Virus record (IMG/VR): IMGVR_UViG_3300047650_000023
Strand: one strand, 5' to 3'
Source: a virus
Length of the DNA: 64,000 bases
Positions within the stretch are counted from its first letter, which is position 1. Each line of letters begins with the position of its first letter. The notes beneath the pieces are model-generated. The model searched no databases. It saw only the letters and a program-made list of their open reading frames with translations, and was not told the DNA's origin. Shown one piece after another: positions 1,688-24,985 of this stretch. The position numbers and the translations under genes were made by a program.

Positions 1688-1732
1688 ATAAATTTCCTCC
1701 TCCCATCAATGACGCATTTTATTTACTTGTAT

Positions 1733-2056
1733 TTAGTGAACACTTTTTGTTACTTCGCCCCATGCAGACATAAAATTATCCCACAATAGTTGTTCAATTT
1801 CATCTCTTTTATAATTCCATATTTTAATATATCCAAAAATATACTTTAAATCATAATCTCTCAATATATTTTCCTCTGATTTTTTAAAAACAAACATACT
1901 TTTATAATGTTTGATACTATAAAATCTTTGTATTTTTTCTTTAAGTTCATTAAATTGGTTTTTATACTTATTATTATTAAATTTCCAACATAAAATTTCA
2001 TATTTTAATTCTTTTTTCTGTAAAATATCATTCATTTTCTCAATTGATATTTGCAA
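1733..2056 (-). CDS. Hypothetical phage protein
   Basis: ORF in co-directional, tightly packed array. Confidence 0.65.
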   Translation of the reverse strand: MQISIEKMNDILQKKELKYEILCWKFNNNKYKNQFNELKEKIQRFYSIKHYKSMFVFKKSEENILRDYDLKYIFGYIKIWNYKRDEIEQLLWDNFMSAWGEVTKSVH

Positions 2057-2062
2057 ATTTAA

Positions 2063-2392
2063 TCATCCCATTTCTTTATAATTTGTTGCACAATATCCTA
2101 TACATTGAGGACATCCGTATTTTTTCATATAGTCTTCCTCGCCTATTCTTTTAACACACACATAATGAGTATCTTTCCACCCAATACGATTATCATTAGT
2201 AGATTCTTTGTTGATAACTATATCATCAACATCAAATAAATCATTTGTAATACCTTTCCATGTATCACGCCATTCTTCAACAATATATTGTTTCATTTCT
2301 AATTCATTGTTAAATTCTTTAGCTTCATCTAAAGATTCATTAAAATGTCCTCTGTGTGGTCTATAAATAATCATAATAAATTCTCCTATCAA
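2063..2392 (-). CDS. Hypothetical phage protein
   Basis: ORF in array; no functional motif recognised. Confidence 0.7.
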   Translation of the reverse strand: MIGEFIMIIYRPHRGHFNESLDEAKEFNNELEMKQYIVEEWRDTWKGITNDLFDVDDIVINKESTNDNRIGWKDTHYVCVKRIGEEDYMKKYGCPQCIGYCATNYKEMG

Positions 2393-2401
2393 AAACGTAT
2401 T

Positions 2402-2743
2402 CTATGCTGTTTTATATATTTCACCTTTTCCAATACAGTCTATTGAAATTTTTATCAATCCACTAAAATCAACATTTACAAAAATACTCTTTTCAGTAAT
2501 ATCTTCTACTTTACCTTCCCATAATGAACAATTGTGATATACAACTACATTATCACCTATTTTAATTTCACTTATATTTTCATATTCGGAACAAAATATA
2601 TCCCAATGATTAATAACAAGTTTACTTATTTCGTGACTATAAAAATTTTTCATAACTTTCTCCTTTTCATCTCCGATAGAAGACATATTTGGTTCACTAT
2701 TTAAACAACTTTTTATTTTTATTAGCGTGATGATTCTTACCAT
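2402..2743 (-). CDS. Hypothetical phage protein (start uncertain)
   Basis: ORF in array; annotated 5' end overlaps the upstream gene. Confidence 0.55.
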   Translation of the reverse strand: MVRIITLIKIKSCLNSEPNMSSIGDEKEKVMKNFYSHEISKLVINHWDIFCSEYENISEIKIGDNVVVYHNCSLWEGKVEDITEKSIFVNVDFSGLIKISIDCIGKGEIYKTA

Positions 2744-3341
2744 AGTCTAATACTTCTTTGATTTTATTCTTATCTTTACCACATGCCCACATAAAACTAT
2801 TCATATAACCTATCATCTGTTCAGTTATGAATTTTTTATAATTTTCCGTACCTTCACCATATATTTTGTTCCACTTTTCCTCAGTTTCCCAACAATTTAA
2901 ATGTGTAGGGATACTATATATTGCTCCTAAACATCCATCTTTATCATTTTGATTTTCAATATCATCACTTGGGTTATAACGTTTACACTCATTACAAGAC
3001 TTATATTTATCTCGGAATTCTTCACATGGCACTTTACCTTCCAATGCAATATCTAAGTCTTTAAAGTCACTTTTAGAAAGCAATTCTTGAATCATTTCAT
3101 TAGCAATTATATATACATCTGTTTCGTTTATATCACAAGGATATGATATAAAATTAGCAACAAATGTATTATTGTCAAATAGCCAAAAATACGTATATTT
3201 ATTATTATAAAATATATCTTCACAATAAACTTCTATAGGTCTATTATATTGTAAAATCTTATGAGGCTTATCTATCCTTGCAATAAGCCTCATATTTTCA
3301 TGCCATGGTTTCATTTTATCTAATGTTATTTCATTAAACAT
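2697..3341 (-). CDS. Hypothetical Cys-containing phage protein
   Basis: 214-aa ORF with CxxC-like clusters. Confidence 0.7.
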   Translation of the reverse strand: MFNEITLDKMKPWHENMRLIARIDKPHKILQYNRPIEVYCEDIFYNNKYTYFWLFDNNTFVANFISYPCDINETDVYIIANEMIQELLSKSDFKDLDIALEGKVPCEEFRDKYKSCNECKRYNPSDDIENQNDKDGCLGAIYSIPTHLNCWETEEKWNKIYGEGTENYKKFITEQMIGYMNSFMWACGKDKNKIKEVLDYGKNHHANKNKKLFK

Positions 3342-3388
3342 TCAATTTCATCCTTCCATATATAAGCATATATTTGGGTAGTATAAAT

Positions 3389-3664
3389 TTATAAATTATA
3401 TTTCTTTTTATGTTCTAATTTTTTATGTTCCTCTGCTTCATCACAAGCTTTTAGAATTTCTTTATAAAACCAATTATTAGATTTAACGTGAATTAATTCT
3501 TTATTTAAATCATCAGTTGGATTACTAATATACAAACCATCTATAGAAGGAAAATTTTCGTAATCCTTTGGATAAATATTATATGAATCATCTCCGCATT
3601 TACTATATTTTGCTTTATACAAAATACCATTTACTTTAATACCATTCCACAAAAACTCAACCAT
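3389..3664 (-). CDS. Hypothetical phage protein
   Basis: ORF in array. Confidence 0.65.
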   Translation of the reverse strand: MVEFLWNGIKVNGILYKAKYSKCGDDSYNIYPKDYENFPSIDGLYISNPTDDLNKELIHVKSNNWFYKEILKACDEAEEHKKLEHKKKYNL

Positions 3665-3709
3665 AAATCTTCACTCCTTATAGATATTTTCCTTTTATAT
3701 ACAAGCAAA

Positions 3710-3862
3710 TTATACTTTTATTAACTTTATACTTTCAATAGCATAACCACTATCTTCTAAGTCCTGTTCAACAAGATATTTTAATGTTTCCTCATCTGAA
3801 TCATCATCGTCAAATTCTGCATTTAAAATAATTTCTAATTTTGATTTTATAATTTTGGACAT
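3710..3862 (-). CDS. Small acidic hypothetical protein
   Basis: Start moved to ATG of MSKII, preceded by GAGGTG. Confidence 0.55.
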   Translation of the reverse strand: MSKIIKSKLEIILNAEFDDDDSDEETLKYLVEQDLEDSGYAIESIKLIKV

Positions 3863-3884
3863 ATAACACACCTCAATGTTAATT

Positions 3885-4169
3885 TTATTGTAACAAATAA
3901 ATATGATCATTATTAATAATTCTTGCATCACCATTTATAATTTTTAATATATAATCTCTACCAAAAGTATTGACTTTAAACTTACCATTGTGCGCTTTTT
4001 CCGAATAACTACCACATGAATAAGTAAATTCACAATCTATTTTTTTATTAAAATTTTCAATTATTTCGTCAATAACGTCTTGTTTAGTATATTCATTATA
4101 CCTTGAAGAATTCCAATGTATTATCTTTGAAAGATTAGATTTATTACATTTAATTATTAATTGTTCCAT
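3885..4169 (-). CDS. Hypothetical phage protein
   Basis: ORF in array; start taken at MEQLI. Confidence 0.55.
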   Translation of the reverse strand: MEQLIIKCNKSNLSKIIHWNSSRYNEYTKQDVIDEIIENFNKKIDCEFTYSCGSYSEKAHNGKFKVNTFGRDYILKIINGDARIINNDHIYLLQ

Positions 4170-4360
4170 GTTATTGCACCAACTATAATTAACATAATAG
4201 CAGTAGCTATTGACCAACTTCCAACAATTTTACAAATGCCAAACGGAAAATCCTTTTCTTTTCTTTCAAAATAATTCATTCCAAATATACAAATTATAAA
4301 TACTATTATAAAAGTTGCAATACCTTTTAACAAACAAAACAATCCCATATCATGCACCAT
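4157..4360 (-). CDS. Small membrane protein
   Basis: Two hydrophobic segments; GAGG upstream. Confidence 0.6.
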   Translation of the reverse strand: MVHDMGLFCLLKGIATFIIVFIICIFGMNYFERKEKDFPFGICKIVGSWSIATAIMLIIVGAITWNN

Positions 4361-4409
4361 TTCATATTCCTCTTTTCTTTATAAATTAAATTATCATTAA
4401 ATTCGACTT

Positions 4410-4652
4410 TTATAAACTGTTTGCGGCATCAATAAGACTATCTGCCATATCGTTTAGTTTGCTTTTAATTTCCATTATAATAGAATCTGAAATAGCAATT
4501 GTGTTATCGCCCTCAAATTCTATATAATATCTTTCTGTGTCATAAGGTAAAAATAATGATAAAGATTTTTCATCCCAGTTCCATTGCTCAATTATAACAC
4601 CAATTTTAGATGTTCTTTCATTAACATGATTTTCGATTTCATTTGTATCCAT
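4410..4652 (-). CDS. Hypothetical phage protein
   Basis: AGGAGG upstream of ATG (MDTNE). Confidence 0.65.
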   Translation of the reverse strand: MDTNEIENHVNERTSKIGVIIEQWNWDEKSLSLFLPYDTERYYIEFEGDNTIAISDSIIMEIKSKLNDMADSLIDAANSL

Positions 4653-5003
4653 AACAATACTCCTCCTTAAAATCCTCACCAAGATACATTTCTATTAACT
4701 TTTTGTTTTATCTTCCAATTCTTTTAATCTTTTATATTCATTCATAATTTCTCTACAGTTTTTTGTCTCAAATTCACGCATTTTTCTTTTTGCTTCCTTG
4801 ATTTCTTCTGCACCATCAGTATCATGTAAATAAATTACTGGCATAATAATCATTCTTTCTTTCATAAAATATGTTCATCAAATCCACCATTGTTGGTATC
4901 TCAATTATATTCCAAATACTTTTTATTGTCAATAGTATTCTTATTAATTATTTAATTTATTTTAGTAACTCATCAAACAATTAAAATACCCAAATATAAC
5001 AAT

Positions 5004-5189
5004 TTAAAACAAATGACTTATTTTCCAAAACCATTTAAATCGTCTATAAATCACTTCGGTCTTATAATCAAATTTATATTTATCTCGTAATTCCTCTATA
5101 TATGTAATCACTTCATCCATAGTGAATCTTTGTTTTTTGTCAAATTTACTCAATGTCATAATAGCAATTTTATTTTTTGTTAGTTTCAT
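5004..5189 (-). CDS. Hypothetical phage protein
   Basis: GGAGG upstream of ATG. Confidence 0.6.
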   Translation of the reverse strand: MKLTKNKIAIMTLSKFDKKQRFTMDEVITYIEELRDKYKFDYKTEVIYRRFKWFWKISHLF

Positions 5190-5597
5190 AAAAACAGCCT
5201 CCCCTATTAATTTTCATTAATTAAAAGTTAACATTATAAAACAAACTTGTCAATGGTTAACTTGTGCTTAAAATAAACAGTATAATCCATTAAAACTGTT
5301 CTACTTAAAATATAATTTATTGATCATTCGTTTCGTCTTTTTATCTGACCAACCTTTACGTTTCTGACAAATAAGCATAGCTTCTTTTACTATATTATAT
5401 TCTTTTTCAAGACGTTCATAAATCACTTGATCAGGATTAAATATTTCTAAAGATTCAGACCACATAATATATACCTCCAATTATTTAATCATAAATTCAG
5501 ATTTTAAAACGGACAATTCTTTTGAATACTTTTCAAAGTCAGATTTATCATATTCGTCTAATGACTTATTTATTAACTGTTCGAGTTCATATATTCG

Positions 5598-5849
5598 TTA
5601 TTCTGCATCAAATTTAGGATGTAAAATAACATTAAATTTATGCTCAAGATCATTAAGAATTGTTTTGTATGAATAATAAGGTGATTCCATTCTATCAAGA
5701 TATTCCAAACATTCAAGTTTATTAAAAATATTTAATTCTTCATTGTTCATAATCAAATCAAATACTTTATCATAAGATAAACTCATTTCGTTATTATAAT
5801 CACTAACTGATTTTACAATATCATTTGAATCATTTTTAGAATTTTTCAT
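5598..5849 (-). CDS. Hypothetical phage protein
   Basis: ORF in array. Confidence 0.55.
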   Translation of the reverse strand: MKNSKNDSNDIVKSVSDYNNEMSLSYDKVFDLIMNNEELNIFNKLECLEYLDRMESPYYSYKTILNDLEHKFNVILHPKFDAE

Positions 5850-5867
5850 ACACTGTACATTTAATTA

Positions 5868-6170
5868 CTATAAATATTTCCTTTCCATATCTTTTAAAAA
5901 TTCTTGATAAGCAGGAGTATTTCTAACTTCTTTCATCTTTTTATTAAATTCATAATAAGATTTTCTACTCTTAAAAATCAAATCTCTACATTTACATGCT
6001 GATGGTTCTTTCTGATTTGTATGAAATTCTCTTGCAAGAATACAACTACTACAGCCTTGACACCTACCATCACAACTATTTGTATAGGGATCATAACAAC
6101 TTTTTTTAATATCTTCATCAGTATATTCTAATTCTGTTTTACATCTTTCAATAAATTTATCTGCTGTCAT
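5868..6170 (-). CDS. Cys-rich hypothetical phage protein
   Basis: CDGRCQGCSSC cluster. Confidence 0.65.
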   Translation of the reverse strand: MTADKFIERCKTELEYTDEDIKKSCYDPYTNSCDGRCQGCSSCILAREFHTNQKEPSACKCRDLIFKSRKSYYEFNKKMKEVRNTPAYQEFLKDMERKYL

Positions 6171-6208
6171 TTTAATTCTTCTTTCTTAACTCTTATAAAT
6201 CCACAGAT

Positions 6209-6481
6209 TCATTCACAATTTACTAAATTAAAAATTTCGTTCCAATCTTGATACTTTTGCAAATCCTCTTGTGGAACAAACAATTCAAATTTGTCTTCAA
6301 TTTCTGCTTGCGTTCCATAACCATTAAAACTAGGACATAACCCAATTTCAAAATCATTATGTTTTTCTATATTACAAAAAACAATAATATTATTCTCCCA
6401 ATTGTTCATGTGGCTTGCAAAGCATTGTATTTGAATCAATTCATTAGTTTTCTTATTTTTATATACATCAAACAATTTCAT
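6209..6481 (-). CDS. Hypothetical phage protein
   Basis: GAAAGG upstream; ORF in array. Confidence 0.65.
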   Translation of the reverse strand: MKLFDVYKNKKTNELIQIQCFASHMNNWENNIIVFCNIEKHNDFEIGLCPSFNGYGTQAEIEDKFELFVPQEDLQKYQDWNEIFNLVNCE

Positions 6482-6652
6482 AATTAATTTTCCTTTCTAA
6501 TTTACAGTAAAATCATGCTTTCATGAACTGTTATATTACTTTGCCAACAAGAATACCACTAAATATAATTGTTGCACATAAAAATCCAACTAAGAATCCT
6601 ATCCAGTAATTTTTATTCATTTATTTATCTCCTTACAAAATTATGTATTGCT

Positions 6653-6907
6653 TCACTTTTTATTATTTGTCATATGCCATTCTGCATAAAGCCATTCAGG
6701 AATATATCTATCTATGGGTTTTCTTCTGTCAAGTTCCATGACACACCATTCACTTGTTTCAATATCAAAACAATTACAACTAAATAAATTACTACGTTCA
6801 CCTCTTACATTTGTACAAGCTGGATCATAAGATAATATTTTTAATTCGTTACCATTTTTGAATTTCATATATACCTTCTCTTCTATTCTGTTAAATATCT
6901 TGTTCAC
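6653..6907 (-). CDS. Hypothetical phage protein
   Basis: ORF in array. Confidence 0.55.
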   Translation of the reverse strand: MNKIFNRIEEKVYMKFKNGNELKILSYDPACTNVRGERSNLFSCNCFDIETSEWCVMELDRRKPIDRYIPEWLYAEWHMTNNKK

Positions 6908-7124
6908 TACTTATAATAATGTCGCTCATATGATCAACAATAGATCGTACTGAATCATTACACATAACTTTATTCATTTCTTTTAAATACCTATAAAATT
7001 CTGTAAATTTATCATTGGCTATCACTTTACATTCTTGAATTTCCGTTTCTCTACAATTAATTTCATCATAAGCATATCTACAAGAACTTTCTTTTGAACA
7101 ATAGTCACAATCATAATCAGCCAT
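6891..7124 (-). CDS. Hypothetical phage protein
   Basis: N-terminal CDYC...C motif. Confidence 0.6.
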   Translation of the reverse strand: MADYDCDYCSKESSCRYAYDEINCRETEIQECKVIANDKFTEFYRYLKEMNKVMCNDSVRSIVDHMSDIIISSEQDI

Positions 7125-7468
7125 TATATATTTTCCTTCTTTCTATTTCGTTAAGTGCTCACAAAACCGCCCTTCTGTTATACCTGAACTAAATCTATTT
7201 CTACAGAAATTTTTCCATTATTATACCTAGCAGTCCCAAAATCCATTTTGACAAACCGTATTTGTCTTTCCTCTTTAATTAATTTATTATTAATATCATA
7301 ATAAAAATAGTCAACCTTATCACCAGTTTTATATTCATTCATTTCAAATAATCCTCTTGATTTTTATATTTCTGTTTTCTTGAATATACCTTATCACTAG
7401 ATTTGATACGAGTTACAGGACTAAACTGCCATGTCCTACGCTTCTTAGACAACTTCGATACATGTACC

Positions 7469-7714
7469 CTAACTGTTATTGCTTTCACTGTTATCACTTC
7501 CTCTACATAGATTACTGTTTACTATATCATTTTCTATTTCTTTGCTGTGTGTTATAACTTCCACATCTATACTACCCTTGTAGAAGGTAGCTATAAATCC
7601 TTCAGACATATCCCAACCATATTGCATTTGAAATAGTTTATATCCTTTTTCAATAATAGCTTGCTTTAAAATCAACCATTTTTCCATTGTCTCAATGCGT
7701 TTAGTGGTAGTCAT
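7469..7714 (-). CDS. Hypothetical phage protein
   Basis: GAGG upstream; ORF in array. Confidence 0.6.
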   Translation of the reverse strand: MTTTKRIETMEKWLILKQAIIEKGYKLFQMQYGWDMSEGFIATFYKGSIDVEVITHSKEIENDIVNSNLCRGSDNSESNNS

Positions 7715-7735
7715 TATTAATCCTCACCAAATATA

Positions 7736-8128
7736 TTATTGATCGGTTTCAAAACCAAATATCCAATATGGATATCCATTTGATACATTACAACCTTCCA
7801 TAATTAAAGTTAATTTAATTGGCTTATCATAATATTTAGAAAGAAATTTTTCGATATCTTCTGGTTGTCTTTGTGAAAAATATTGTCCTTCGTTATGCCA
7901 TACTTCTTTACAACACCTGTTATACTTTTCATAATTCCATTGATGAAGTCTATCTGAATATACTAAGGACGATTTATCTTTATTGTAATTATTTTTCCAC
8001 ACGACAAACTCATCATAGCTATATGGATATTCATACTTAGTTTTTCTCACTGGATTTCCTTTAATATCACAATAATCAAAATTAACAACACAACCATTCA
8101 TATCAAGCATAATTATCTTCCCTTTCAA
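7736..8128 (-). CDS. Hypothetical phage protein
   Basis: 130-aa ORF bounded by junction palindromes. Confidence 0.7.
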   Translation of the reverse strand: MKGKIIMLDMNGCVVNFDYCDIKGNPVRKTKYEYPYSYDEFVVWKNNYNKDKSSLVYSDRLHQWNYEKYNRCCKEVWHNEGQYFSQRQPEDIEKFLSKYYDKPIKLTLIMEGCNVSNGYPYWIFGFETDQ

Positions 8129-8147
8129 TCCATATCAAACAAGTTTT

Positions 8148-8423
8148 CTATAGTACTTTTACAGCTTTTTCAAAATCTACTCTGTCAAGCTTATCTTCAG
8201 CAAATTCACAATTCTTGTCGCAATATTGAAATTGAGTCATATCAGATTTTGCAACAATACAAAATTCTGGTATTTCATCAATAGGGAAATAATTGTTTAA
8301 TCCAAACACTTTAAAAACCCTATCAAGTTGATTATAATCTTTCATATAATAAGTATACCATGTTCCATCTCTTAAAAATTCCGGCTTAAAACCAATTTCC
8401 TTTAAATTTTCAAGTGTATACAT
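8148..8423 (-). CDS. Hypothetical phage protein
   Basis: AAAGGAG upstream. Confidence 0.65.
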   Translation of the reverse strand: MYTLENLKEIGFKPEFLRDGTWYTYYMKDYNQLDRVFKVFGLNNYFPIDEIPEFCIVAKSDMTQFQYCDKNCEFAEDKLDRVDFEKAVKVL

Positions 8424-8456
8424 AAAAATCTCCTTTCAAAATGTGTTTCAAATGAC

Positions 8457-8663: not shown

Positions 8664-8679
8664 ATATATCAATCCTTTC

Positions 8680-8874: not shown

Positions 8875-8913
8875 GATTAACTCCTTTCGACTACCATAAA
8901 TCTCATAATTGGT

Positions 8914-9055: not shown

Positions 9056-9078
9056 GTCAGACATCCTTTCAAACTATA

Positions 9079-10646
9079 ATAGAATCTGTAATTGCTAGGG
9101 TTTAAGAAACCATATTATTTTCACATAATTTACCAAACTGCCAACCATTATTATGGCAAATAATTTTTGCTTTCTTCATATAAATGGATAAACTATTTTT
9201 ACGTTCAGTCATTTTAATTAAATTACCTTCTGCATTTCTTATTAATGCATCATGACTTCGTTCACCTCCGCAAAAACCATATACCCAACCAGTTTGATTA
9301 TTATACTTAATCATGTCATTCATAAACACACCATTCCTAAAAGGCACATTTTTATTAGCTCTAGTTGCTGTTACATTTTTATGGCTTCTGCCTTTACGTG
9401 GAATTGATTCATGTAAAGAACGTTTCTTTTTACGAAACTGTTTATACATAAAATATTCTTTCGGATTATACTTAATGATTTTAATTCCACTAATAGTTAT
9501 CGCATCATTATAATGTGTTTTATCCAATTCAAGTTCTTTCCTATTTGGAGTAGTTTCATTTCCATAAGTAATTATAGCATTCGGATATTGTTGAAAAGTA
9601 CGTTTTCTTACAATATTCATAAATACACTTTCACGATATTGTTTAACTTTCTTATGCTCTTTCATCCACTTGTATAAAATACTACCTTGTTTATGATTCT
9701 CAGATGTATGACAATCAGAACATACTGTAATTAAATTATCTGCTCTGTTTGTACCACCTTCTGATTTATATAAGATATGATGAGTGTGCAAAATCTTATT
9801 TTTCTTGTGACATACTTGACAAGTATATTCATCTCTTGCAAAAACAAAATATCTCACGGTGTAATAATCTTTGCAATCACCATTTTGATAATCTTTTCCG
9901 CTGATATCTGGATTAATCATTTTTGCAACATCAAACTTACCAACTTCAATATGAAGTTTTGGATTAAAAACTAAGGAACAAAATGTATCAATCCATTTAA
10001 ATGTTGAATTTACTCGACTGTTAATACTAGGAGGCAACCAATTGTCTTTACGCTTACGATTGAGGAATCTATCTTGTCTATATCTAGTTTTCTTGTTACG
10101 TCTGTGCCTTCTAAATGTTTTTCTTACAATCATTAAATTATGAATATCTTGACGTAATTCAATTTCACCTTTTACTAATACTTTATCATCAGATGTAATT
10201 GCTATGCCAATATGTTTTGCTCCAGTATCTACACCAACATTAACTTCCTGTACAGTTTCACCTGTCGGATAAAGCAATTGAATAGTAAAAGGATTATACT
10301 TAACAATCTTTGCTTTATTCTCTTTCAAAAGCAATCTTGCCTTTTTATTAGAACAAGGCATAAGAGGTTGATTTTTTAAATTTTTAACGAATACTCTCAA
10401 GTTTCGTTCTCCTTTCAGAGTTGTTTCCCTTCGGCAATGTTCTAATCGCTTGTCATTCGACCAATTCTAGGTTGACCGCATCGTGTTTTTCAATGCTTTT
10501 ACAGAGCCTACACAGAGCATGGGACTAGGGAATCATCCCAAGGTGTGATAACGATAAGAACGTAGTAATTTAATACTTAGCCTATTGCTTGATACACGTA
10601 AGTGTATGATATTTCTATCAAAAACCCAAGCAAACCTACAATCTAT
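9079..10646 (-). mobile_element. Non-autonomous IscB-omegaRNA unit bounded by inverted 18-bp junction sites
   Basis: ATAGAAtctgtaATTGCTAGGGTTT (9079-9103) is an imperfect inverted repeat of 10622-10646; no tnpA in the window. Confidence 0.6.
9102..10400 (-). CDS. iscB: IscB RNA-guided endonuclease (OMEGA, Cas9 ancestor)
   Basis: PLMP N-terminus (QPLMPC), RuvC-I VGVDTG, Arg-rich bridge (RRHRRNKKTRYR), RuvC-II HIEV, HNH (HTHH...GGTNRADNL...CH), RuvC-III HYNDA; TTG start after AAAGGAG. Confidence 0.95.
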   Translation of the reverse strand: MRVFVKNLKNQPLMPCSNKKARLLLKENKAKIVKYNPFTIQLLYPTGETVQEVNVGVDTGAKHIGIAITSDDKVLVKGEIELRQDIHNLMIVRKTFRRHRRNKKTRYRQDRFLNRKRKDNWLPPSINSRVNSTFKWIDTFCSLVFNPKLHIEVGKFDVAKMINPDISGKDYQNGDCKDYYTVRYFVFARDEYTCQVCHKKNKILHTHHILYKSEGGTNRADNLITVCSDCHTSENHKQGSILYKWMKEHKKVKQYRESVFMNIVRKRTFQQYPNAIITYGNETTPNRKELELDKTHYNDAITISGIKIIKYNPKEYFMYKQFRKKKRSLHESIPRKGRSHKNVTATRANKNVPFRNGVFMNDMIKYNNQTGWVYGFCGGERSHDALIRNAEGNLIKMTERKNSLSIYMKKAKIICHNNGWQFGKLCENNMVS

Positions 10647-10834: not shown

Positions 10835-10869
10835 AAATTAATCAACCTTTCTAATTTCAAAATTTTAAA

Positions 10870-11082: not shown

Positions 11083-11127
11083 AATAAATCAACCTTTCTA
11101 AATTCAAAAAAATTTATCCTATAAAAT

Positions 11128-11763
11128 TTACCATTTATCATAAAACATTTTAGTAAGACTTTTGTATTCCTGTTCTCCAATAAATGCCTCAGACGTTACA
11201 ATTGCCTTGACTGTATTATCAAAATAATCTGACGAATTTAAAACGCCAACTGATTCAACTTGATCATTAATCCATTCTGAAAATGCTGTAAATTCATCCA
11301 CTGGTTTATATTTGCCAACAGAAGGGCTGGAGCAAATAGTAAGTGACAATATTTTACCTGTCTGTTCTCCAAGAAAAGTTAATACATAAGAAACAAGTTT
11401 TGTTTCTTTCCCGTATAAATGTGTTGGTATATTTGATTCTGTACGATAAATTTCAACAAACCAATCGTCACCACTTTCAGTAGATAAAATATTAATATCA
11501 ATTTCTGGATTTTTACACAATACATCAAAAAGTTTCTTTTCATAGTCTTTGTTATAATCAAGATTAAATTCTAATCCAGAATCAAAAATTGCAATTTCTC
11601 TTTTTTCATGTTCTTGTTTTTTATCTTCATCACAATCATCATATGATTCACAAATCATTTTATTTGTTTTTTCGTTATATCCTATTACACACCAAAATTT
11701 ATTATCTTTACTAAAAGTCTCATTGTTTAACCAATCATACATATTCAACACCAAACCTTTCAA
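11128..11763 (-). CDS. Hypothetical phage protein
   Basis: 211-aa ORF; true start probably MYDWL. Confidence 0.7.
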   Translation of the reverse strand: MKGLVLNMYDWLNNETFSKDNKFWCVIGYNEKTNKMICESYDDCDEDKKQEHEKREIAIFDSGLEFNLDYNKDYEKKLFDVLCKNPEIDINILSTESGDDWFVEIYRTESNIPTHLYGKETKLVSYVLTFLGEQTGKILSLTICSSPSVGKYKPVDEFTAFSEWINDQVESVGVLNSSDYFDNTVKAIVTSEAFIGEQEYKSLTKMFYDKW

Positions 11764-13119: not shown

Positions 13120-13162
13120 TCATTTATACTTCCTTTTCGCTCTCGTTTGAAACGTGAGCGGA

Positions 13163-13345: not shown

Positions 13346-13752
13346 ATTTAACTTCCTTTTAACTTGATTAGAATTGATTACAAATTAATTATTACGCATC
13401 ATATAGTTATATAAATTTTGCTGTATTTCGATTTTTACATGAGCTTCCCATATTATAATTCCAAGAAAAATTCCTATTACAATTAATGCAAATAAAACTT
13501 TCCCTTTGCCTGTTGGACTCATTCTATAATTTCTGTGCATCATCATACGGCGCATTCTCATTATTTATTTACCTCCACCAATTAACATAATTTCCACAAT
13601 TGCAATTGCAATACAGATTAAAACTAAGAAGAAGTTTCTAAAAAAATGAGAACGACCTCTATGCCTTGACATACCCATCATACGCATTGCACGCATTTCA
13701 TAATCCAACCTTTCAAAATAAAGTGTGAATGAAAGCATTAATCTATGGTAGT

Positions 13753-14316: not shown

Positions 14317-14542
14317 AATTTATTTCTGTTATCTAACTACCATAAAAACACCATTTGCTGAGGATGAATTTAAAAGAACATTAATTCTTTTTCATCATCT
14401 TCTTCATTTATTTCTCTGTCGATATCAAGAATAGCATTAGCCACAAGATTAGCCGTCATTCTATCACAATTGGTAATATTCATTACTGCGTTCTCCATCT
14501 GTGTCATAGCTTTCATTTTAATACACTCCATTTTCTGTTCTG

Positions 14543-14809: not shown

Positions 14810-15119
14810 ATAGTGTCCTTTCAGTTAAATAAATATGCTAGTTAATTTTCATAAGTTTCCCACTTTTATCTGTAACTGTGACATTATAAAAATCTTTTGC
14901 CCACATAAGAGAATGAAAGCCAAACCATTTTGATACAGCCTCATTTGCTGTATCAGCAACAATTAAAGAACCATTTACATAATAATCATTCATGATATTT
15001 ACTCCATTCAGTTTATTTCAATACGATAAATGCCTTGATTGATGATACATTTAGATTACCTTAACTAATTTTATGTCGTGAACTTGATGATATTTTTGAT
15101 TGATAAACCGAAATATTAT

Positions 15120-15566: not shown

Positions 15567-15652
15567 AATAATTTCTCCTTTAAACTTGCCTGTACTTATG
15601 TATCAGGGCTTACAGTTTATTTACCATCAATGTTTTATTTCATGGTAGTTAA

Positions 15653-16156
15653 TTATTTATTATAATCATGTTCAAATCTTGTACCTGCCCAATGAATATC
15701 TACTCCATAATGACTCATAGCCTCAATCTTATCATCATCGTGAATCCAATTGATAGTGTGCTGTGTATTAACTGTTCTACGTTTCTTATCCCATTCTTCT
15801 TCTGTTATATCATCAGGCTTTTTCGTGTCCCAATCAATAAAACCTTGCCCATGATATGTTGCTTCTCCACCAGTTTCCATCCGAATCATTTCGCCACGAG
15901 TAAAGACAATGCTATCAAAACGATTCATGTTGGTTTCTATTGTATTTTTCATTTCATATGAATACATCATATAACATTCTTTTCCGTCTTCAGAATATGG
16001 ATTAATTTCCTTATTAGCTCCAATTACAAATGAATCACCGCAATGATTACAAACAACTAATACTTCCTTTTCATTTTCTATTGCATGGTCAATTTTATCC
16101 TGTTCAATAAAAAGTACTCTCCCACAATCACAAAACCTTACATCATATTTTTTCAT
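15653..16156 (-). CDS. Putative zinc-binding protein, paralog of 13753-14316
   Basis: CDCG and CNHCG motifs. Confidence 0.75.
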   Translation of the reverse strand: MKKYDVRFCDCGRVLFIEQDKIDHAIENEKEVLVVCNHCGDSFVIGANKEINPYSEDGKECYMMYSYEMKNTIETNMNRFDSIVFTRGEMIRMETGGEATYHGQGFIDWDTKKPDDITEEEWDKKRRTVNTQHTINWIHDDDKIEAMSHYGVDIHWAGTRFEHDYNK

Positions 16157-16230
16157 ATGTAACAGTCACTTTCTAATTATAATTTATTTCTGTTAAGTGT
16201 GAACCAAATCCGAATTCTATAGGGTTTATC

Positions 16231-16521
16231 TTATACATCAACAATGTCATACGTTATAGTTTGATCATTGTTTTGAATAAACTTTTTTATTTTTACATTA
16301 TTATCTTTGAGATTCTGAATTAAATTATAGTATTTCTTTGAAAACTCTCCATCATCACCATTAATATCACCAATGTAATTTTTACTTGTTTGTATAGACT
16401 CTTCATAATAAATCTTTTCACCATCTTTTATAATGTCTACACAAAAATAATCAATTCCTTGTCTTAATTCTGTATGAACATGAATATATGCATGTTCCAT
16501 AATTAGCACCAACCCTTTCAT
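16231..16521 (-). CDS. Hypothetical phage protein
   Basis: Directly downstream of the promoter at 16549-16577. Confidence 0.65.
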   Translation of the reverse strand: MKGLVLIMEHAYIHVHTELRQGIDYFCVDIIKDGEKIYYEESIQTSKNYIGDINGDDGEFSKKYYNLIQNLKDNNVKIKKFIQNNDQTITYDIVDV

Positions 16522-16548
16522 ATTTCAGTATCTGTTTTCCATGATTTT

Positions 16549-16577
16549 ATTATACACTATTTAGTTTGCTTTGTCAA
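16549..16577 (-). promoter_or_regulatory. Consensus sigma-A promoter
   Basis: TTGACA-17-TATAAT on minus strand. Confidence 0.85.
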
Positions 16578-16595
16578 CAATAAATTAAAAATAAT

Positions 16596-16826
16596 TCAGA
16601 ATATTTTATAATTTTCTCCGGTCTTTAATTTAAATTCAATATCTAATTCTGCATCTAAAATATCACTATATTCTTGAAGGTCTTTAATAGTCCAATTATT
16701 ACGTGATAACTTATTATGAATATTCTGTGCGCTAGTCTTTTTAAGTCTTGCAAAATCCGCTATAGACAGTCCACAATGCGCTATAAACATCTTAATTCTA
16801 TCTGATATAGTTATTATAGTAATCAT
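16596..16826 (-). CDS. Xre/Cro-family HTH regulator
   Basis: LSIADFARLKKTSAQNIHNKLSR helix-turn-helix. Confidence 0.85.
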   Translation of the reverse strand: MITIITISDRIKMFIAHCGLSIADFARLKKTSAQNIHNKLSRNNWTIKDLQEYSDILDAELDIEFKLKTGENYKIF

Positions 16827-17299
16827 ATTAATCTCCTTGTAACTAAAATGTGTGGATTTTGGGCATGATAATAGATTGATATTTTATCTATTTATAAGTA
16901 TAATTGTATGCTTCAATATGAGTTTTTGCCCATTGTGCAAATTCAATAAAATCGAATATATTAGTTTTAATAGAATAATTTGCTCTATTTCTATTATGAA
17001 AATAATAATAAATAAACGCCTTAATAAATATAATATACTTTTGCATTATATCACCTTCATAAATATTTTTGTGTATTGATGGGTAAATTTTTTAGCCACT
17101 GATTGTATTAGTAATTAACCCATAAAAATTTGCTTCAAATGTTGTTTGCGCTAAATCTTGTATTTCTTCTTGTGTGGCATTATCTCTTACAAGAACATTG
17201 ACTTTAACTACACCTAAAGGATGTTTTACATAAGTAGGTACTTGCTTCATTTTTTAGCCTCCGTTTCAAGTGTGCATCAATCCACTCTTCTATATGGTA

Positions 17300-17617
17300 T
17301 TAACTAACTCTCATTATAAGTTGCATATTCAATTCTTTATTATAAGATTCATGCCTTGGCTCGTTTTTTAATATAATATATTCATATCTGTTTATTAATT
17401 CAAGTATCATATCTGTAGTTTTTGCCTGAATTGTTTGAATCTTATTAACTGATGATAATACGTCTTTATAATACAAATTATAAATAATATCTGCTTCTTG
17501 TGTATCATAAATGCTATATATAAATTTGTCTGTTTCAATTCTTAAACGTGTCGGAGTATCTATCTTTTTTAATTCTTTCTTGAAATTATTAAACTTTATC
17601 TCATTCATCCTCACCAA
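17300..17617 (-). CDS. Hypothetical phage protein
   Basis: Bounded by junction sites at 17276 and 17613. Confidence 0.6.
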   Translation of the reverse strand: MVRMNEIKFNNFKKELKKIDTPTRLRIETDKFIYSIYDTQEADIIYNLYYKDVLSSVNKIQTIQAKTTDMILELINRYEYIILKNEPRHESYNKELNMQLIMRVS

Positions 17618-17626
17618 ACTCCCTTT

Positions 17627-17833
17627 TCATTGTATATTATTTGACATAACTAAAATTTTATCTTGTATAGTTTTACATGATTTAAGAAATTCTATGCCAG
17701 ATTGCAGATTAGAAATCATTCTATCATAGTCAACAATATTAATTCCTAATTCTTCATTTGGCATTTTATAATTTTCCGATTCTACAAATACATCACCATC
17801 AAATCTTTCCGAAACAATAATATCTTTAAACAT
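17627..17833 (-). CDS. Hypothetical phage protein
   Basis: Bounded by junction sites at 17613 and 17835. Confidence 0.6.
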   Translation of the reverse strand: MFKDIIVSERFDGDVFVESENYKMPNEELGINIVDYDRMISNLQSGIEFLKSCKTIQDKILVMSNNIQ

Positions 17834-18241
17834 TATAAATCCTTCTTTCTAAAATTAATAGTCTCCAATAACGCCATTATCAGAATCCAAAATCGTGTAA
17901 ACTATTTCTTCATCATCATTTTGCTTGAGTATCTCAATCATAGTTACAGCACCTTGAATAGTATCATATTTATAATCATACTCAATATTGTTTTTTTCGG
18001 TCAATAATTTTATACATAAAATTACCTCTTTCTTATTTCTGAATTTATAATCTGTATGATTTAATTATATCGTTGCTTAAATCGTTCTAAATATTCTAAA
18101 GCTTGCTCGTACATACCACTGAATAAAATAATATCATCAATTAAAACATGCCAAATATTATCATTACCTTCTGCTAATCGTAACAATATATTTCACCAAC
18201 CTTTTTATTATTATGTAAAACATATTGTCAATATTATTATA

Positions 18242-18454
18242 TCACATATAGCTATAAATACTAATAAGAGATATTGAATTTTTACACTCGCCTTTTGGAT
18301 TTAAAGTCTCTACAAGATAACTATTAATTCTTTTTGTAATTCTGTCAAACAACATTTCACTCGTAAAAGGTTTATTTACAATTGCCGTTACTTCATCTTT
18401 GATTGCTACGTTATTTTTATATCGTGCTAAAAGTTCTGATTGCCAGCGTTGCAT
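18242..18454 (-). CDS. Hypothetical phage protein
   Basis: GAGGT upstream. Confidence 0.6.
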   Translation of the reverse strand: MQRWQSELLARYKNNVAIKDEVTAIVNKPFTSEMLFDRITKRINSYLVETLNPKGECKNSISLISIYSYM

Positions 18455-18713
18455 TTTGATTACCTCAATTCATTTATTATTAATATCCAAGATAGTTATA
18501 TATACTAATGAATGCGTTTGTTTCCTGTCTCTGTCCACGCTGATTGAATGTTTCGACAAAATAACCGCTTAAATCCTTTGTGATATCCATAAACTTTCCA
18601 TCCGAAATTCATAAGTTCATGAGCTATTCTTACTTTTGCATCTTGCATTGTATAATAATTAGACATAATATATACCACCTTTAATAATTCTAATTTATTT
18701 ATTCGATAGATAT

Positions 18714-18742
18714 ATTATACTACAATAAATTAAGAATATCAA
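18714..18742 (-). promoter_or_regulatory. Sigma-A-type promoter
   Basis: TTGATA-17-TATAAT on minus strand. Confidence 0.7.
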
Positions 18743-18927
18743 TGGTATTTTATGCTTTTGTAAAAATATATTTAAGTTTATTTTTAATGAAATTATTTTA
18801 AATATGAGTATGGTTTAGACTGTTGCTGTACCTATTACAGTGCATTCTGATAGCCTATTATTTTAGGGTTATAATATTACTATTAACATATAAACTAGCT
18901 GTGTTGCTGATTAATTAAAAGCAAAAC

Positions 18928-18958
18928 AAAAGGTATAAGGCTATTGCCCTATACCTTT
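18928..18958 (-). terminator. Intrinsic terminator
   Basis: AAAGGTATA...TATACCTTT stem followed by a T-tract on the minus strand after the 18965 gene. Confidence 0.65.
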
Positions 18959-18964
18959 ATATAG

Positions 18965-19213
18965 TCAGTCAATTTTATTCTGAAATTTTTTATACAATAA
19001 AAATAAAATAATTACAATAACCGAATAAATGTAATAAGTTATTCTTGTATGTGCAATACATACGCCAATAATAATGGCAATAATAGAAATATAAAATATT
19101 ATACGTGTTTTACAAAATTGAATAAAACGATGAATTGTATCATTATCAAACATTAAATTTCTCCTTTTCAGCCGATAAAATAGTAGTTCTATGACATCAA
19201 ATAAACTTGACAT
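18965..19213 (-). CDS. Small membrane protein
   Basis: Two hydrophobic segments. Confidence 0.55.
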   Translation of the reverse strand: MSSLFDVIELLFYRLKRRNLMFDNDTIHRFIQFCKTRIIFYISIIAIIIGVCIAHTRITYYIYSVIVIILFLLYKKFQNKID

Positions 19214-19389
19214 AATTTTCGATTCATATGATCTGCAATAACTTCAATTGAATCTATTTTTCCATCTGCATATCCTATATTAGCACCAAAAATAACACCT
19301 ATATAAAATTCATTTTTACTCCATTCAATTTTAACTTTATCACCAAAAAGTAAAATTGATAAATCATGAATTTGTTTCATTATAAACAC
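19189..19389 (-). CDS. Hypothetical phage protein
   Basis: ORF in array. Confidence 0.55.
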   Translation of the reverse strand: MFIMKQIHDLSILLFGDKVKIEWSKNEFYIGVIFGANIGYADGKIDSIEVIADHMNRKLCQVYLMS

Positions 19390-19459
19390 TTCACTTTCAA
19401 TTTATTGCAGTTTTCTTTTATTCCGTGAAAACTTTTAAATATCGGCTGTAGTGGCTCTA

Positions 19460-20548
19460 TTAGGCTGTCTGCTCGTCTTTTGGTTTAGATTCATACTTTG
19501 TATAGGTTGGGTTTTCTTGCTCTGTGTCTGCTATACCTTTAAGAATACTAGCTATAACATTATAACGCTTTTGAACCTTTGTAGCGTCCCCAGAACCACT
19601 ACCAGTAGTTTCTGAATAATCTTTTATGGCTCTTTTATTTGCAAAAACATTGTTGATAAGTGACACATATTGACCGTCTGTAAACTCTTTATGCTCTGCC
19701 ATAATATATGCCAAAACAGATACAAAATTAGCGTTCATACTGCGGATTGTTTGATCATCTACAATATGTGTATAAATACTTGCTATACGATTAATTAATG
19801 CTGTTGCTTTTTCAATATTTGGGATTATAATTTCCTCTGCATCTGTCAAACGTTTGCATAGCTCTTTTGCTTTTATGTCATCATATCCCAAATTAGATAC
19901 AGCAAGTAAAGCATTCATTGCGATAATTTCATGATGATGTGATTTACTAAAAGTAGCATTTGCTTTGTCTGAAATTGTGCGGAAAAATTCATTACCTGAA
20001 ACTGTCAATAATGCATCGTTAAGTTTTTGGGAAAGTTTAGAACGTTCTTTGACAATTGCCGCTAATGCTGTGCCACCATTTAATTTACGAAAATAGTTTG
20101 TCATTTCCTCGATTGATTGGAAACCTTTGACGATAACAACAGTAATATTATAATTTAAAACTGCTTTTTGCTGATCCACTGTAACTGCTTTATCATTCAA
20201 CAAAAGAATTAAACTTGTCATACGCTGTAAGCCGTCTATAAGGTATTGTATGCCGTTAAATTCAGCTATTGTGATACAATTGCAAGGTAAGCCATGATTA
20301 ATTGAATCAAGCAAAGACAAGCGTTGTTCCTCAGTCCAAACATAAAGCCTTTGACATAAAGGAATTGAAAATTTACCTTCCTTATAACGTTTTATAATGC
20401 TTCTAACAGTTGTACGTTCACTTGACCATTCATAAACAATATCAGTTGTTGCTTGCTCTTGCTCGTCAAGATCATTTGCTGCGTTGGCAAAAGCTGCGAG
20501 TATATCCTGTTGCTCTACCTGTTCATTTCCCTTTATTTCTTCGTTCAT
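19460..20548 (-). CDS. DUF262 (GmrS/ParB-like) domain protein
   Basis: IPLCQRLYVW and LIDGLQR motifs. Confidence 0.8.
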   Translation of the reverse strand: MNEEIKGNEQVEQQDILAAFANAANDLDEQEQATTDIVYEWSSERTTVRSIIKRYKEGKFSIPLCQRLYVWTEEQRLSLLDSINHGLPCNCITIAEFNGIQYLIDGLQRMTSLILLLNDKAVTVDQQKAVLNYNITVVIVKGFQSIEEMTNYFRKLNGGTALAAIVKERSKLSQKLNDALLTVSGNEFFRTISDKANATFSKSHHHEIIAMNALLAVSNLGYDDIKAKELCKRLTDAEEIIIPNIEKATALINRIASIYTHIVDDQTIRSMNANFVSVLAYIMAEHKEFTDGQYVSLINNVFANKRAIKDYSETTGSGSGDATKVQKRYNVIASILKGIADTEQENPTYTKYESKPKDEQTA

Positions 20549-21187: not shown

Positions 21188-21232
21188 CTTTCAAAATATA
21201 ATGTAACCGATAAAATTATTATTTGATGATAA

Positions 21233-21442
21233 TTACATACTGAATCTATCAACTAATGTTTCAACATCTATATTGTCATCGCCTCTTACTGTACATTCAT
21301 TGATAATATTGTCTTTATCAATAACCATTCCACAATCTTTAATTTTTACTACATACTTTTTACCTACTGTTAGAACTGTTTCAACGTCTGTATTATCTAC
21401 GCATTCCATTACTTTATTTGCTATAATTTTTGTCTTTGTCAT
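21233..21442 (-). CDS. Hypothetical phage protein
   Basis: AGGAG upstream. Confidence 0.6.
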   Translation of the reverse strand: MTKTKIIANKVMECVDNTDVETVLTVGKKYVVKIKDCGMVIDKDNIINECTVRGDDNIDVETLVDRFSM

Positions 21443-21497
21443 AATAAACTCCTGTTATAGTCTGCCTGTGTTATTAAACATTCAGGGCTTACGACTG

Positions 21498-21728
21498 TTA
21501 TTGGATATTGTTCTTATCCATAAATTCCGTAACTTCTTTGATATGCTGCTTGATTTCGGTTAATTTCTTTTCATCTTCTTCAATCCATTGCTTAGAATCA
21601 TCATCTTCAAATCTCCGATAGCATTCTTTGCTATCACTAAGTTTTTTCTCTGCCTTTTTTAACTGTTCATCCCATTCCATTAGGGTGATTTCTCTTTTTG
21701 TACCTTTTAATATTTGCATTATTAACAC
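21498..21728 (-). CDS. Hypothetical coiled-coil protein
   Basis: Downstream of the promoter at 21774. Confidence 0.6.
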   Translation of the reverse strand: MLIMQILKGTKREITLMEWDEQLKKAEKKLSDSKECYRRFEDDDSKQWIEEDEKKLTEIKQHIKEVTEFMDKNNIQ

Positions 21729-21773
21729 TCACTTTCAAAACTTATTGTTTGCTTATCTCTTAACCATGATTAC

Positions 21774-21802
21774 ATTATACACTTTATAGTGTCCAGTGTC
21801 AA
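21774..21802 (-). promoter_or_regulatory. Consensus sigma-A promoter
   Basis: TTGACA-17-TATAAT on minus strand. Confidence 0.85.
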
Positions 21803-21831
21803 GCGTTTTATTGAAATAAATTAAAAATATT

Positions 21832-22047
21832 TTAAATAGTTTCTTTGGTATCATTCAATTTAAACTCACCGATAAATTGTGCATCAAGCTTATTAGCTAT
21901 TTCTCGCAGTTCCTTTTCACTGAAATTATCCCTTGAAAACTTGTTGCTTAGATTTTGTCGGCTGATCTGGATGCGGTCTGCAAGCTCCTGCATGGTCATA
22001 TTACGCCGATTTAAAAGTATGCGTATCTTTTCACCCATTGTTATCAT
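21832..22047 (-). CDS. Xre/Cro-family HTH regulator
   Basis: MTMQELADRIQISRQNLSNKFSR HTH; similar to 16596-16826. Confidence 0.88.
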   Translation of the reverse strand: MITMGEKIRILLNRRNMTMQELADRIQISRQNLSNKFSRDNFSEKELREIANKLDAQFIGEFKLNDTKETI

Positions 22048-22083
22048 TGTATCACCTCAATTGATTTCTGACTGTCTAACGAC

Positions 22084-22112
22084 ATTTTAAACGTTATAGT
22101 GTACATTGTCAA
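22084..22112 (-). promoter_or_regulatory. Sigma-A promoter of the Xre gene
   Basis: TTGACA-17-TAAAAT; spacer shares ACACTATAA with the 21774 promoter. Confidence 0.75.
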
Positions 22113-22163
22113 TAAAATTTTTGCGTAAAAAGTGTGAATTGAATTGCTATTTGATCGTGTCTG

Positions 22164-22367
22164 TTAATCTGTTATTATTTCACCTTTATACGTTGTAACC
22201 TTTTGAATTAATTGAATATCATAATTACTATTGACTTTAAAAATAACTTCGTGATGATGCGGATCAATTTTCTTATCTTCCAAAACAAGGGAATTTAATT
22301 GCCGTTTAATTATGCTTTCAATGTAATTGTTTACTGTCATTTTAAGTTTTTTCATGTGATCAAACAC
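22164..22367 (-). CDS. Hypothetical phage protein
   Basis: AAAGGAG upstream. Confidence 0.55.
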   Translation of the reverse strand: MFDHMKKLKMTVNNYIESIIKRQLNSLVLEDKKIDPHHHEVIFKVNSNYDIQLIQKVTTYKGEIITD

Positions 22368-22683
22368 TCCTTTGCTTCACATATTTTTACTATTTTAATA
22401 ATTGCGATTGTTCAAGTATTTTCTCTTGTAATTCTCTGAATGTATCGAAACTTACCCCAGAGTATTCAACATCTGCCATATCATCCATTGTACTATATTT
22501 ATTAAATCGTTTTGCAATCTCTTTAATTAATTCGTCATTGTTGCAAATATTTTCAATATTTTCACCACTTATAAATTCTTCACATTTAAAAATTGCATTT
22601 CAAATTGCATCATTAACTTTAATAAACTGCTTAGTCAAAAATGTTATTTCAGCTTTACTATATTCTTCCATGATATACTCCTT

Positions 22684-24981: not shown

Positions 24982-24985
24982 TCTG

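Follow-up and report, generated by a model that had tools for sequence, protein, structure and literature searches.

The window analysed in this work, a 64,000-nucleotide (nt) stretch of viral DNA (IMG/VR record IMGVR_UViG_3300047650_000023) with a G+C content of about 27%, carries on its minus strand, between positions 300 and 27475, an array of about 70 small genes arranged in a few long operons. Between many of these genes recurs the element with which we are concerned here, an 18-bp site made of two short conserved arms on either side of six variable base pairs. The array is followed by a 3-kb non-coding gap, by a tyrosine recombinase gene on the plus strand (30523–31377) and by a plus-strand late arm that encodes a YonO-type single-subunit RNA polymerase (37485–40220), a terminase (49106–51043) and a portal protein (51090–52850). 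The polymerase, a protein of 911 amino acids (AA), heads the plus-strand arm and is 44% identical to a protein of Clostridium phage c-st, which by this measure is the nearest named phage. The Pfam families YonV_C, YopX, YonJ and YonG, present in relatives, assign the group to the SPbeta-like phages; the host phage is a large, uncultured phage of Clostridium type. Peat metagenomes contain the same phage at 100% identity, the longest contig reaching 188 kb, and the window's own contig stops about 1.7 kb to the left of the window. A Transposase_mut gene (L049, 11253–12497, about 1 kb past the window's left end) closes the JGI contig just beyond the last array genes, so that the end of the array can be placed near window base 300. 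On the array strand only seven strong-promoter matches (11–12 of 12) were found within 1–20000, and the array contains four terminator-like sites, against 3.1 expected. Promoters and terminators being so few, the junction sites lie inside long operons. A comparison of the left-arm DNA with phage and plasmid collections yielded no match.

The junction motif is real. The initial annotation had listed 28 copies of the 18-mer, and all of them are present where it placed them; the formula that it gave, ANNRAW-N6-WTYNNT, describes 23 of the 28 and does not describe those at 4678, 5490, 6507, 17835 and 22586. Its warning that so loose a motif must also occur by chance was justified, as the whole window contains 172 matches, against 170.5 ± 12.7 in shuffled sequences, and about half of the 68 matches found within 1705–22603 are intragenic. 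Junctions occupy only a quarter of the positions of the array region 1300–23400, in which the density of matches is 6.6 per kb at junctions and 2.2 per kb within genes, with 37 matches in each class. In a spacing control, both arms were kept fixed and every spacer from 0 to 20 was tried, which leaves stop codons and ribosome-binding sites (RBSs) in place: there were 37 junction matches at spacer 6 against 6–23 at every other spacer, and the intragenic counts were flat, without any peak. Bias due to stop codons and RBSs, which had been named beforehand as the explanation that would undo the claim, thus does not account for the enrichment at junctions. A second gene caller gave 36 junction matches at spacer 6, and there was no spacer-6 peak in the window's late (right) arm or in 50 kb of phage c-st, which have a like composition and RBS type. 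A blind expectation-maximisation search of the junctions, from which the Shine–Dalgarno region had been removed, ranked the motif best, with a score of 216 (134–176 for shuffles). Positions that the formula leaves free also differ between the two sets of 37 matches, since position 2 is a T in 24 junction matches and in eight intragenic ones, and position 17 is an A in 25 and 12 respectively. In all, a match is borne by 29 of the 59 junctions between 1300 and 23600, about 12 junction matches being expected by chance. Twenty-six of the 37 junction matches begin at most 12 nt from a stop codon, a band that represents 24.5% of junction positions, and in seven matches the stop codon is formed by bases 2–4 of the left arm; this register, previously described for six open reading frames (ORFs), holds for all of them and for the stop at 19189 as well.

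Read on the sense strand, the consensus is AYMRAA-N6-TTYKRT, with six unconserved central bases, and the site lies between a stop codon (often within the left arm) and the RBS of the next gene. The distance from arm to arm is exactly 6 nt, whereas the distance from the right arm to the RBS or start codon varies, and each alternative found in the left arm (Y, M, R) has its mirror image on the right (R, K, Y). The two arms of a given site do not covary, as within-site pairing is 76.5%, compared with 78.1 ± 1.6% for arms shuffled among sites, and 12 junction transcripts fold no better than their shuffles (z-scores −1.3 to +2.1). A fixed spacing and mirrored alternatives, without covariation or RNA stability, therefore bear the signature of a double-stranded DNA site, presumably read by two copies of a protein, and not of an RNA structure. 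The G+C content of the centres (43% and 36%) is above that of the arms (16% and 20%). Single sites had been described as palindromes, a description that is not borne out, because inverted repeats in general show no enrichment at spacer 6 and the symmetry exists only in the consensus. A hairpin or cruciform is ruled out by this lack of enrichment together with the absence of arm covariation and of stable folds. A role as operator of sigma-A promoters was also dropped, given the scarcity of promoters in the array and the lack of promoter association, a site being present at two of six promoter junctions and at 27 of 53 other junctions. The consensus for integration host factor and a type I restriction target were weighed as identities and dropped. 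A longer element of the form X-N6-Y (ACTACC..., ...TCACACTT) has about five copies in the window and does not generalise. Individual sites are listed in Table 1.

Table 1. The recombinase gene and individual junction sites of the window (sites given in sense reading, arms in capitals and centre in lower case).
Feature	Position	Strand	Sequence	Remarks
Tyrosine recombinase	30523..31377	+		284 AA; divergent from array; Pfam Phage_integrase; candidate enzyme
Site	1705..1722	-	ATAAAA-tgcgtc-ATTGAT	Immediately 5' of RBS
Site	2388..2405	-	ATAGAA-tacgtt-TTTGAT	Stop TAG is left-arm bases 2-4
Site	2676..2693	-	ACCAAA-tatgtc-TTCTAT	Junction site
Site	4396..4413	-	ATAAAA-gtcgaa-TTTAAT	Stop codon within left arm
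Site	6195..6212	-	ATGAAT-ctgtgg-ATTTAT	Stop TGA within left arm
Site	7161..7178	-	ACAGAA-gggcgg-TTTTGT	Junction site
Site	7726..7743	-	ATCAAT-aatata-TTTGGT	Touches RBS
Site	8134..8151	-	ATAGAA-aacttg-TTTGAT	Stop codon within left arm
Site	8896..8913	-	ACCAAT-tatgag-ATTTAT	Outer flanks are those of site 13729, in inverted order
Site	9079..9096	-	AGCAAT-tacaga-TTCTAT	Just 3' of IscB-like ORF
Site	10629..10646	-	ATAGAT-tgtagg-TTTGCT	Stop codon within left arm; overlaps 5' end of HEARO RNA
Site	11121..11138	-	ATAAAT-ggtaaa-TTTTAT	Junction site
Site	13729..13746	-	ATAGAT-taatgc-TTTCAT	Flanks ACTACC and TCACACTT
Site	14342..14359	-	AGCAAA-tggtgt-TTTTAT	Upstream of paralogue g13753-14295
Site	15026..15043	-	ATCAAT-caaggc-ATTTAT	
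Site	15626..15643	-	ATGAAA-taaaac-ATTGAT	Downstream of paralogue g15653-16156
Site	16203..16220	-	ATAGAA-ttcgga-TTTGGT	Followed by TCACACTT
Site	17276..17293	-	ATAGAA-gagtgg-ATTGAT	Followed by GCACACTT
Site	17613..17630	-	ATGAAA-agggag-TTTGGT	Stop codon within left arm
Site	19175..19192	-	ATAGAA-ctacta-TTTTAT	Stop codon within left arm; absent from the initial list
Site	21210..21227	-	ATCAAA-taataa-TTTTAT	Junction site
Site	22138..22155	-	ATCAAA-tagcaa-TTCAAT	Followed by TCACACTT; 25 nt upstream of a sigma-A-type promoter
Site	23378..23395	-	ATCAAT-ctatca-ATTGAT	Arms perfectly complementary, unlike in any other copy; intergenic region of 199 bp; absent from the initial list

Related small-gene arrays were reached through homologues of the 167-AA protein encoded by g15653-16156, the IMG/VR relatives found via the RNA polymerase (37–49% G+C) being too distant for motif comparison. 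One of these arrays, L040 with its continuation L051 (NCBI assembly GCA_023411975.1, 31% G+C), played no part in deriving the original pattern; apart from the g15653-16156 family, its similarity to the window array is limited to one distant match (22% identity), in addition to a flanking recombinase homologue (32% identity). L040 has 28 junction matches at spacer 6 against 3–12 elsewhere, and the next 10 kb of the contig (L051) have 14 against 1–9. Blind discovery in L040 gave 308, compared with 95–124 for shuffles, and 20 of 32 junctions were found to have the motif. The L040 sites are all in the same orientation and are laid out as (TGAG)TAG, ATAGAA, N6, TTTGGT, 0–9 nt, GAAAGGA, ATG. When a matrix was trained on the 12 arm positions of L040 only, it picked 12 window junction sites at spacer 6 and 0–2 at any other spacer, and the pattern is therefore not a by-eye fit to the window. 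Only these 12 positions transfer, as a 34-nt L040 matrix that includes the flanks fails in the window. GTACATAG, compared with the Bacillus subtilis replication terminator protein (RTP/Ter) B-site, for which the consensus was checked, occurs in no more than a few L040 sites and with a different spacing, so this identity was rejected.

A sister form of the motif, TRAAA-N6-TTTYA, peaks at spacer 6 in the junctions of three other relatives, in which the stricter formula of the initial annotation had given no signal: there are 16 matches against 0–1 at other spacers in L044, 12 against 0–1 in L045 and eight against 0–2 in L036. TAAAA-N6-TTTTA is a special case of positions 2–17 of the window motif, and a single degenerate 16-bp core peaks in the window, L040, L051, L036, L044 and L045; the same core gives no peak in L037, L038 and L043. 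These sites constitute a family distributed across several SPbeta/c-st-like phages, with a common geometry (mirrored arms of 5–6 bp and a 6-bp centre) and an arm sequence specific to each lineage.

L044 and L045 are two related phages that differ in gene content, and their comparison provides the evidence that links the sites to recombination. Ten of the 12 L045 sites match the 6-bp centre of an L044 site, in the same order (null mean 0.45, null maximum 4). Consecutive common sites delimit nine slots, and in six of these the genes have no BLASTP similarity. At 6423/6052 and at 11994/11994 (L044/L045), identity extends over 380 and 4557 nt, respectively, on one side of the site and over 0 nt on the other, and at seven sites only the site and the RBS that follows are common, with unrelated DNA on both sides. 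These properties indicate that in L044 and L045 the sites are the places at which genes are exchanged. The free reordering of genes that had been proposed is not what these genomes suggest, as centres kept in order favour an exchange in register.

Within the window's own phage, contigs from three peat runs have in common the gene 13753–14295 and the junction with site 13729, and diverge exactly at the next start codon (13695). This divergence is compatible with a crossover at the site because the common block in L044/L045 begins at the site and ends at about the start codon. The function of the window sites is thus suggested by analogy with L044/L045, with the addition of this one mosaic boundary in metagenome contigs. 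Scans for exact patterns gave a single chance match among viral contigs and 22 isolated ones among metagenome contigs, and revealed no array. The paralogues g13753-14295 and g15653-16156 (minus strand, 39% identity) are both bordered by sites on both sides.

The recombinase gene 30523–31377 belongs to a family of proteins of 234–300 AA encoded on large phage-like contigs. Residues R115, K144, H221, R224, H253 and Y262 are invariant in 23 homologues, which argues that the family is catalytically competent, and the window protein is predicted to be a catalytically intact, Xer/Cre-like enzyme. The best matches of the family profile are XerA (1.5e-16), XerC-like proteins, XerD and XerH, with IntI4 at only 2.7e-6; the top fold matches are XerH and XerA, and Cre is also among the nearest structures. 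Enzymes of the Xer/Cre type use centres of 6–8 bp. A member of the family accompanies the motif array in four cases: its gene adjoins the array and is transcribed divergently in the window and L040, and lies within the array on the same strand in L044 and L045. The recombinase is not present within the 20 kb of L036 examined. The protein has no similarity to the c-st YopR homologue. Its neighbourhood (27.4–30.6 kb) contains iteron-like repeats and no outstanding copy of the site. That this Xer-like protein is the enzyme acting at the sites is plausible but, on balance, rather doubtful, and the protein is at present only the candidate.

Several other features of the region deserve mention. The non-coding gap (27500–30500) contains iteron-like direct repeats (TTTCAACAG.GTTTTCAACA at 28010–28100), repeats spaced by about 259 bp at 29720–30087 and a sign change of the GC skew, and has the look of an origin or partition region. 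Mid-array (19460–20548, minus strand) there is a GmrSD_N/DUF262 nuclease-like gene, and a gene with the homologous domain is directly 3' of the recombinase gene in L044 and L045. A HEARO RNA (Rfam RF02033, 84.4 bits) at 10420–10633 (minus strand) immediately precedes an ORF of 432 AA that has RRXRR and HNH domains (9102–10400, minus strand). By their sequence, the RNA and the ORF (9102–10633) constitute an IscB/omega-RNA element (OMEGA, IS200/605-type) within the early array; it is bordered by the motif sites 10629 and 9079. Two small Cro/CI-type helix–turn–helix proteins encoded on the minus strand (16596–16826 and 21832–22047) form a second paralogue pair, with 34% identity. The word TATAACAG, often a TAA stop followed by CAG, is over-represented at window junctions, was noted over 21400–26200 with a very dense stretch at about 23.0–26.2 kb, and is also the top blind-found junction motif in L036. 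Two tRNA genes are present on the plus strand of the late arm (46029–46118 and 46708–46782), one assigned by ARAGORN to Ser with the unusual anticodon ACT and the other to Gly (TCC).

A close parallel is the laboratory exchange of cassettes between lox or FRT sites that differ in their spacers. In cassette exchange by Cre or Flp only sites with identical centres recombine, and the segment between two different sites is swapped without deletion. The phage sites resemble these in having common arms around a short centre, and in L044/L045 the centres keep their order while the contents of the slots differ. They differ from them in being natural and present in dozens, in having conserved arms of 5–6 bp instead of 13 bp and a centre of 6 bp instead of 8 bp, and in that the enzyme is only a candidate. 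With integrons, to which the initial annotation had compared the array, there are points in common, namely small genes that are mostly without promoters, a recombination-type site after each of them, and a divergent tyrosine recombinase that adjoins the array (in the window and L040). The attC sites of integrons are folded single strands of 57–141 bp recognised by their structure, whereas the junction sites are 18–24 bp long without pairing signal. In addition, the match to IntI4 is far weaker than those to Xer proteins, and the phage centres are kept in order, which is not what the insertion of cassettes at one end would give. As no IntI-type enzyme, no attC-like folded site and no attI were found, the integron-like mechanism was abandoned.

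The junction sites can also be compared with the pdif/dif modules of Acinetobacter plasmids, where XerC/XerD act on many Xer-type sites with 6-bp centres placed around small variable gene modules (PMC6449649; PMC13141974); the likeness extends to the phage recombinase, which is nearest to Xer enzymes. The pdif sites are 28 bp long (11-6-11), resemble the host dif and alternate in orientation (PMC6449649; PMC13141974), whereas the junction sites conserve only 6 bp per arm and sit between a stop codon and an RBS within operons. Compared with a core site of the Xer/dif type, the junction sites have the two inverted arms and the 6-bp centre (the peak being strictly at spacer 6 in six loci), and lack arms of 11 bp with conserved outer parts. 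Imitation of a host dif seems doubtful from the Firmicute dif sequences compared, which the sites do not match, and was dropped as an identity: only TAGAA-N6-TT.TGT is in common with B. subtilis dif, and the predicted Clostridium botulinum dif sites differ (PMC3025954 supplement).

Taken together, these observations lead us to conclude that the sites are very probably recombination-associated junction sites, of a family shared by SPbeta/c-st-like phages. The interpretation of the initial annotation is thus supported in part: its reading of them as recombination sites agrees with the arm/6-bp centre/arm geometry, the position between cistrons, the breakpoints in relatives and the intact recombinase nearby, and the evidence goes against its integron-like mechanism and its reordering of genes. 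More specifically, they may be core sites of the tyrosine-recombinase type, with distinct centres that allow genes to be exchanged slot by slot, a possibility that we put forward tentatively and somewhat short of calling it probable. The common arms would bind the recombinase protein, and the 6-bp centre specific to each site would serve as an address, so that recombination would be confined to sites with equal centres. In this way the gene or genes of one slot could be exchanged between co-infecting relatives, or between a phage and a related prophage, an exchange that would leave the array undeleted and in order. We infer that the crossover is made by a recombinase rather than through short homology, and that the window sites work like those of L044/L045. 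The complete proposal, in which SPbeta/c-st-like phages possess a natural cassette-exchange system where a catalytic-domain-only Xer-like recombinase uses dozens of core sites to swap single slots between related genomes, is rather unlikely to be correct in all its parts.

A number of observations weigh against this interpretation. All the other copies of the window's phage that were fetched are 100% identical, and the comparison of centres and breakpoints was made only in the relatives L044 and L045. The coincidence of breakpoints with sites, suggested at the outset as a check, is observed in these relatives, where homology ends at the sites, but window contigs in metagenomes also diverge at three junctions devoid of the motif (13164, 21838 and 18199), and the motif is therefore not required for every gene replacement; half of the window junctions have no site. 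The window and L040 arrays have almost no genes in common, and their 74 and 94 loose-pattern matches have just three 6-mer centres in common, all AT-only or nearly so. The AlphaFold2 model of the recombinase folds only from about residue 80, which corresponds to the catalytic domain alone, without a folded N-terminal DNA-binding domain, and L043 has a recombinase homologue but no motif peak. The flanks beyond the 6-bp arms are specific to each lineage and not mirrored overall (81 of 198 outer-6-bp matches in L040, no better than with permuted partners, and 26 of 138 in the window), outer-arm mirror symmetry being seen in only about three sites of the L040 phage; the conserved arms are consequently shorter than the 11–13-bp arms of Xer or Cre sites. 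Finally, stop codons cluster in the left flank of the L040 sites and in many cases close two or three frames, which hints at a role in translation.

Other explanations account for part of these observations. The crossovers might be made by short-homology recombination, through a phage or host general system, the sites being junction linkers as proposed for the PeSL elements of T4-type phages. PeSL elements are likewise repeated intergenic elements of the variable early regions of large phages in which gene modules are shuffled; they consist of a strong promoter and a terminator stem-loop and act through homology (PMC2839356; PMC4122927), whereas the junction sites lack both promoter and hairpin, and their centre varies. 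Besides this precedent, such a process would account for the coincidence of mosaic boundaries with sites in L044/L045, the common block of site and RBS (17–30 bp) would be sufficient for some phage annealing proteins, and L043 has the recombinase, itself only a candidate for the sites, without the motif. Short homology needs neither mirrored arms nor a centre of constant 6-bp length, but this geometry persists across lineages whose arm sequences differ. Moreover, arms common to dozens of places would favour harmful ectopic exchange, and 17 bp of identity between unrelated flanks is short for RecA-type recombination. We consider this explanation improbable. The same low probability is given to the idea that the sites bind a dimeric regulatory or architectural protein on long early operons, for example a roadblock or a prophage silencer, recombination being a by-product. 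The mirrored consensus, the rigid spacing and the operator-like positions of sites 4877 and 16203 would fit such a protein, and SPbeta-like phages, the same broad group, have a repeated intergenic element, SPBRE, which is the operator of MrpR/SroF and is bound by a repressor with a tyrosine-recombinase fold (PMC10516654). There are about ten SPBRE sites, located at promoters, and the repressor reads its asymmetric operator of 24–26 bp as a monomer and has no catalytic tyrosine (PMC10516654; bioRxiv 10.1101/2025.11.27.690993). In contrast, there are about 30 junction sites, with a mirrored consensus and inside operons, and the local recombinase, predicted to be catalytically intact, keeps all six catalytic residues (R, K, H, R, H, Y); an SPBRE-like operator was rejected on these grounds. 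The distribution of sites among promoter and other junctions argues against this idea, as does the absence of a YopR homologue in the window and L040, and a regulatory role leaves unexplained why centres keep their order amid changing genes.

The sites might alternatively act on the mRNA, as an intercistronic translation signal in which the left half is a multi-frame stop cluster and the right half a U-rich leader preceding the Shine–Dalgarno sequence, the mirror symmetry being accidental. The stop codon in the left arm of seven window sites and the proximity of most junction matches to a stop codon point in this direction. So does L040, where the right arm lies 0–9 nt before the RBS and the flank TGAgTAGaTAG (e.g. 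14615–14644) closes all three frames in five of 33 sites, against 0.2% of control 14-mers. It is hard to see, however, why a translation signal should place the right arm at exactly 6 nt from the left arm and not at a fixed distance from the RBS, why base alternatives should be mirrored between the arms, or why some sites should be 77–189 nt from any stop codon; furthermore, no RNA structure is found, and the late arm of the window and c-st, with a like composition and RBS type, show no peak. This explanation seems to us unlikely, to the same degree as the two preceding ones. Chance and over-fitting, i.e. a loose AT-rich pattern tuned by eye to the junctions, could be invoked because there is no excess over the whole window, because five of the 28 listed sites depart from the formula and because about 12 junction matches are expected by chance. 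The spacing control, the blind discovery, the replication in the unseen L040/L051 and the cross-phage scan with the L040 arms refute this possibility, to which we give hardly any credit. What probability remains goes to an explanation outside these five readings, among which the core sites of a tyrosine recombinase, exchanging genes slot by slot, are the one we prefer.

No description of such junction sites was found in our literature searches. In large temperate phages the content of the accessory-gene arrays changes very rapidly. A set of crossover points fixed at the borders of genes, each distinguished by its own centre, would offer a simple means of achieving this turnover while sparing the operons, and one that can be tested in the SPbeta/phi3T laboratory system. 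If the natural cassette-exchange system proposed here is real, the gene content of these phages would turn over while gene order and operon structure are kept, and the sites could supply a natural toolbox of mutually exclusive recombination sites.

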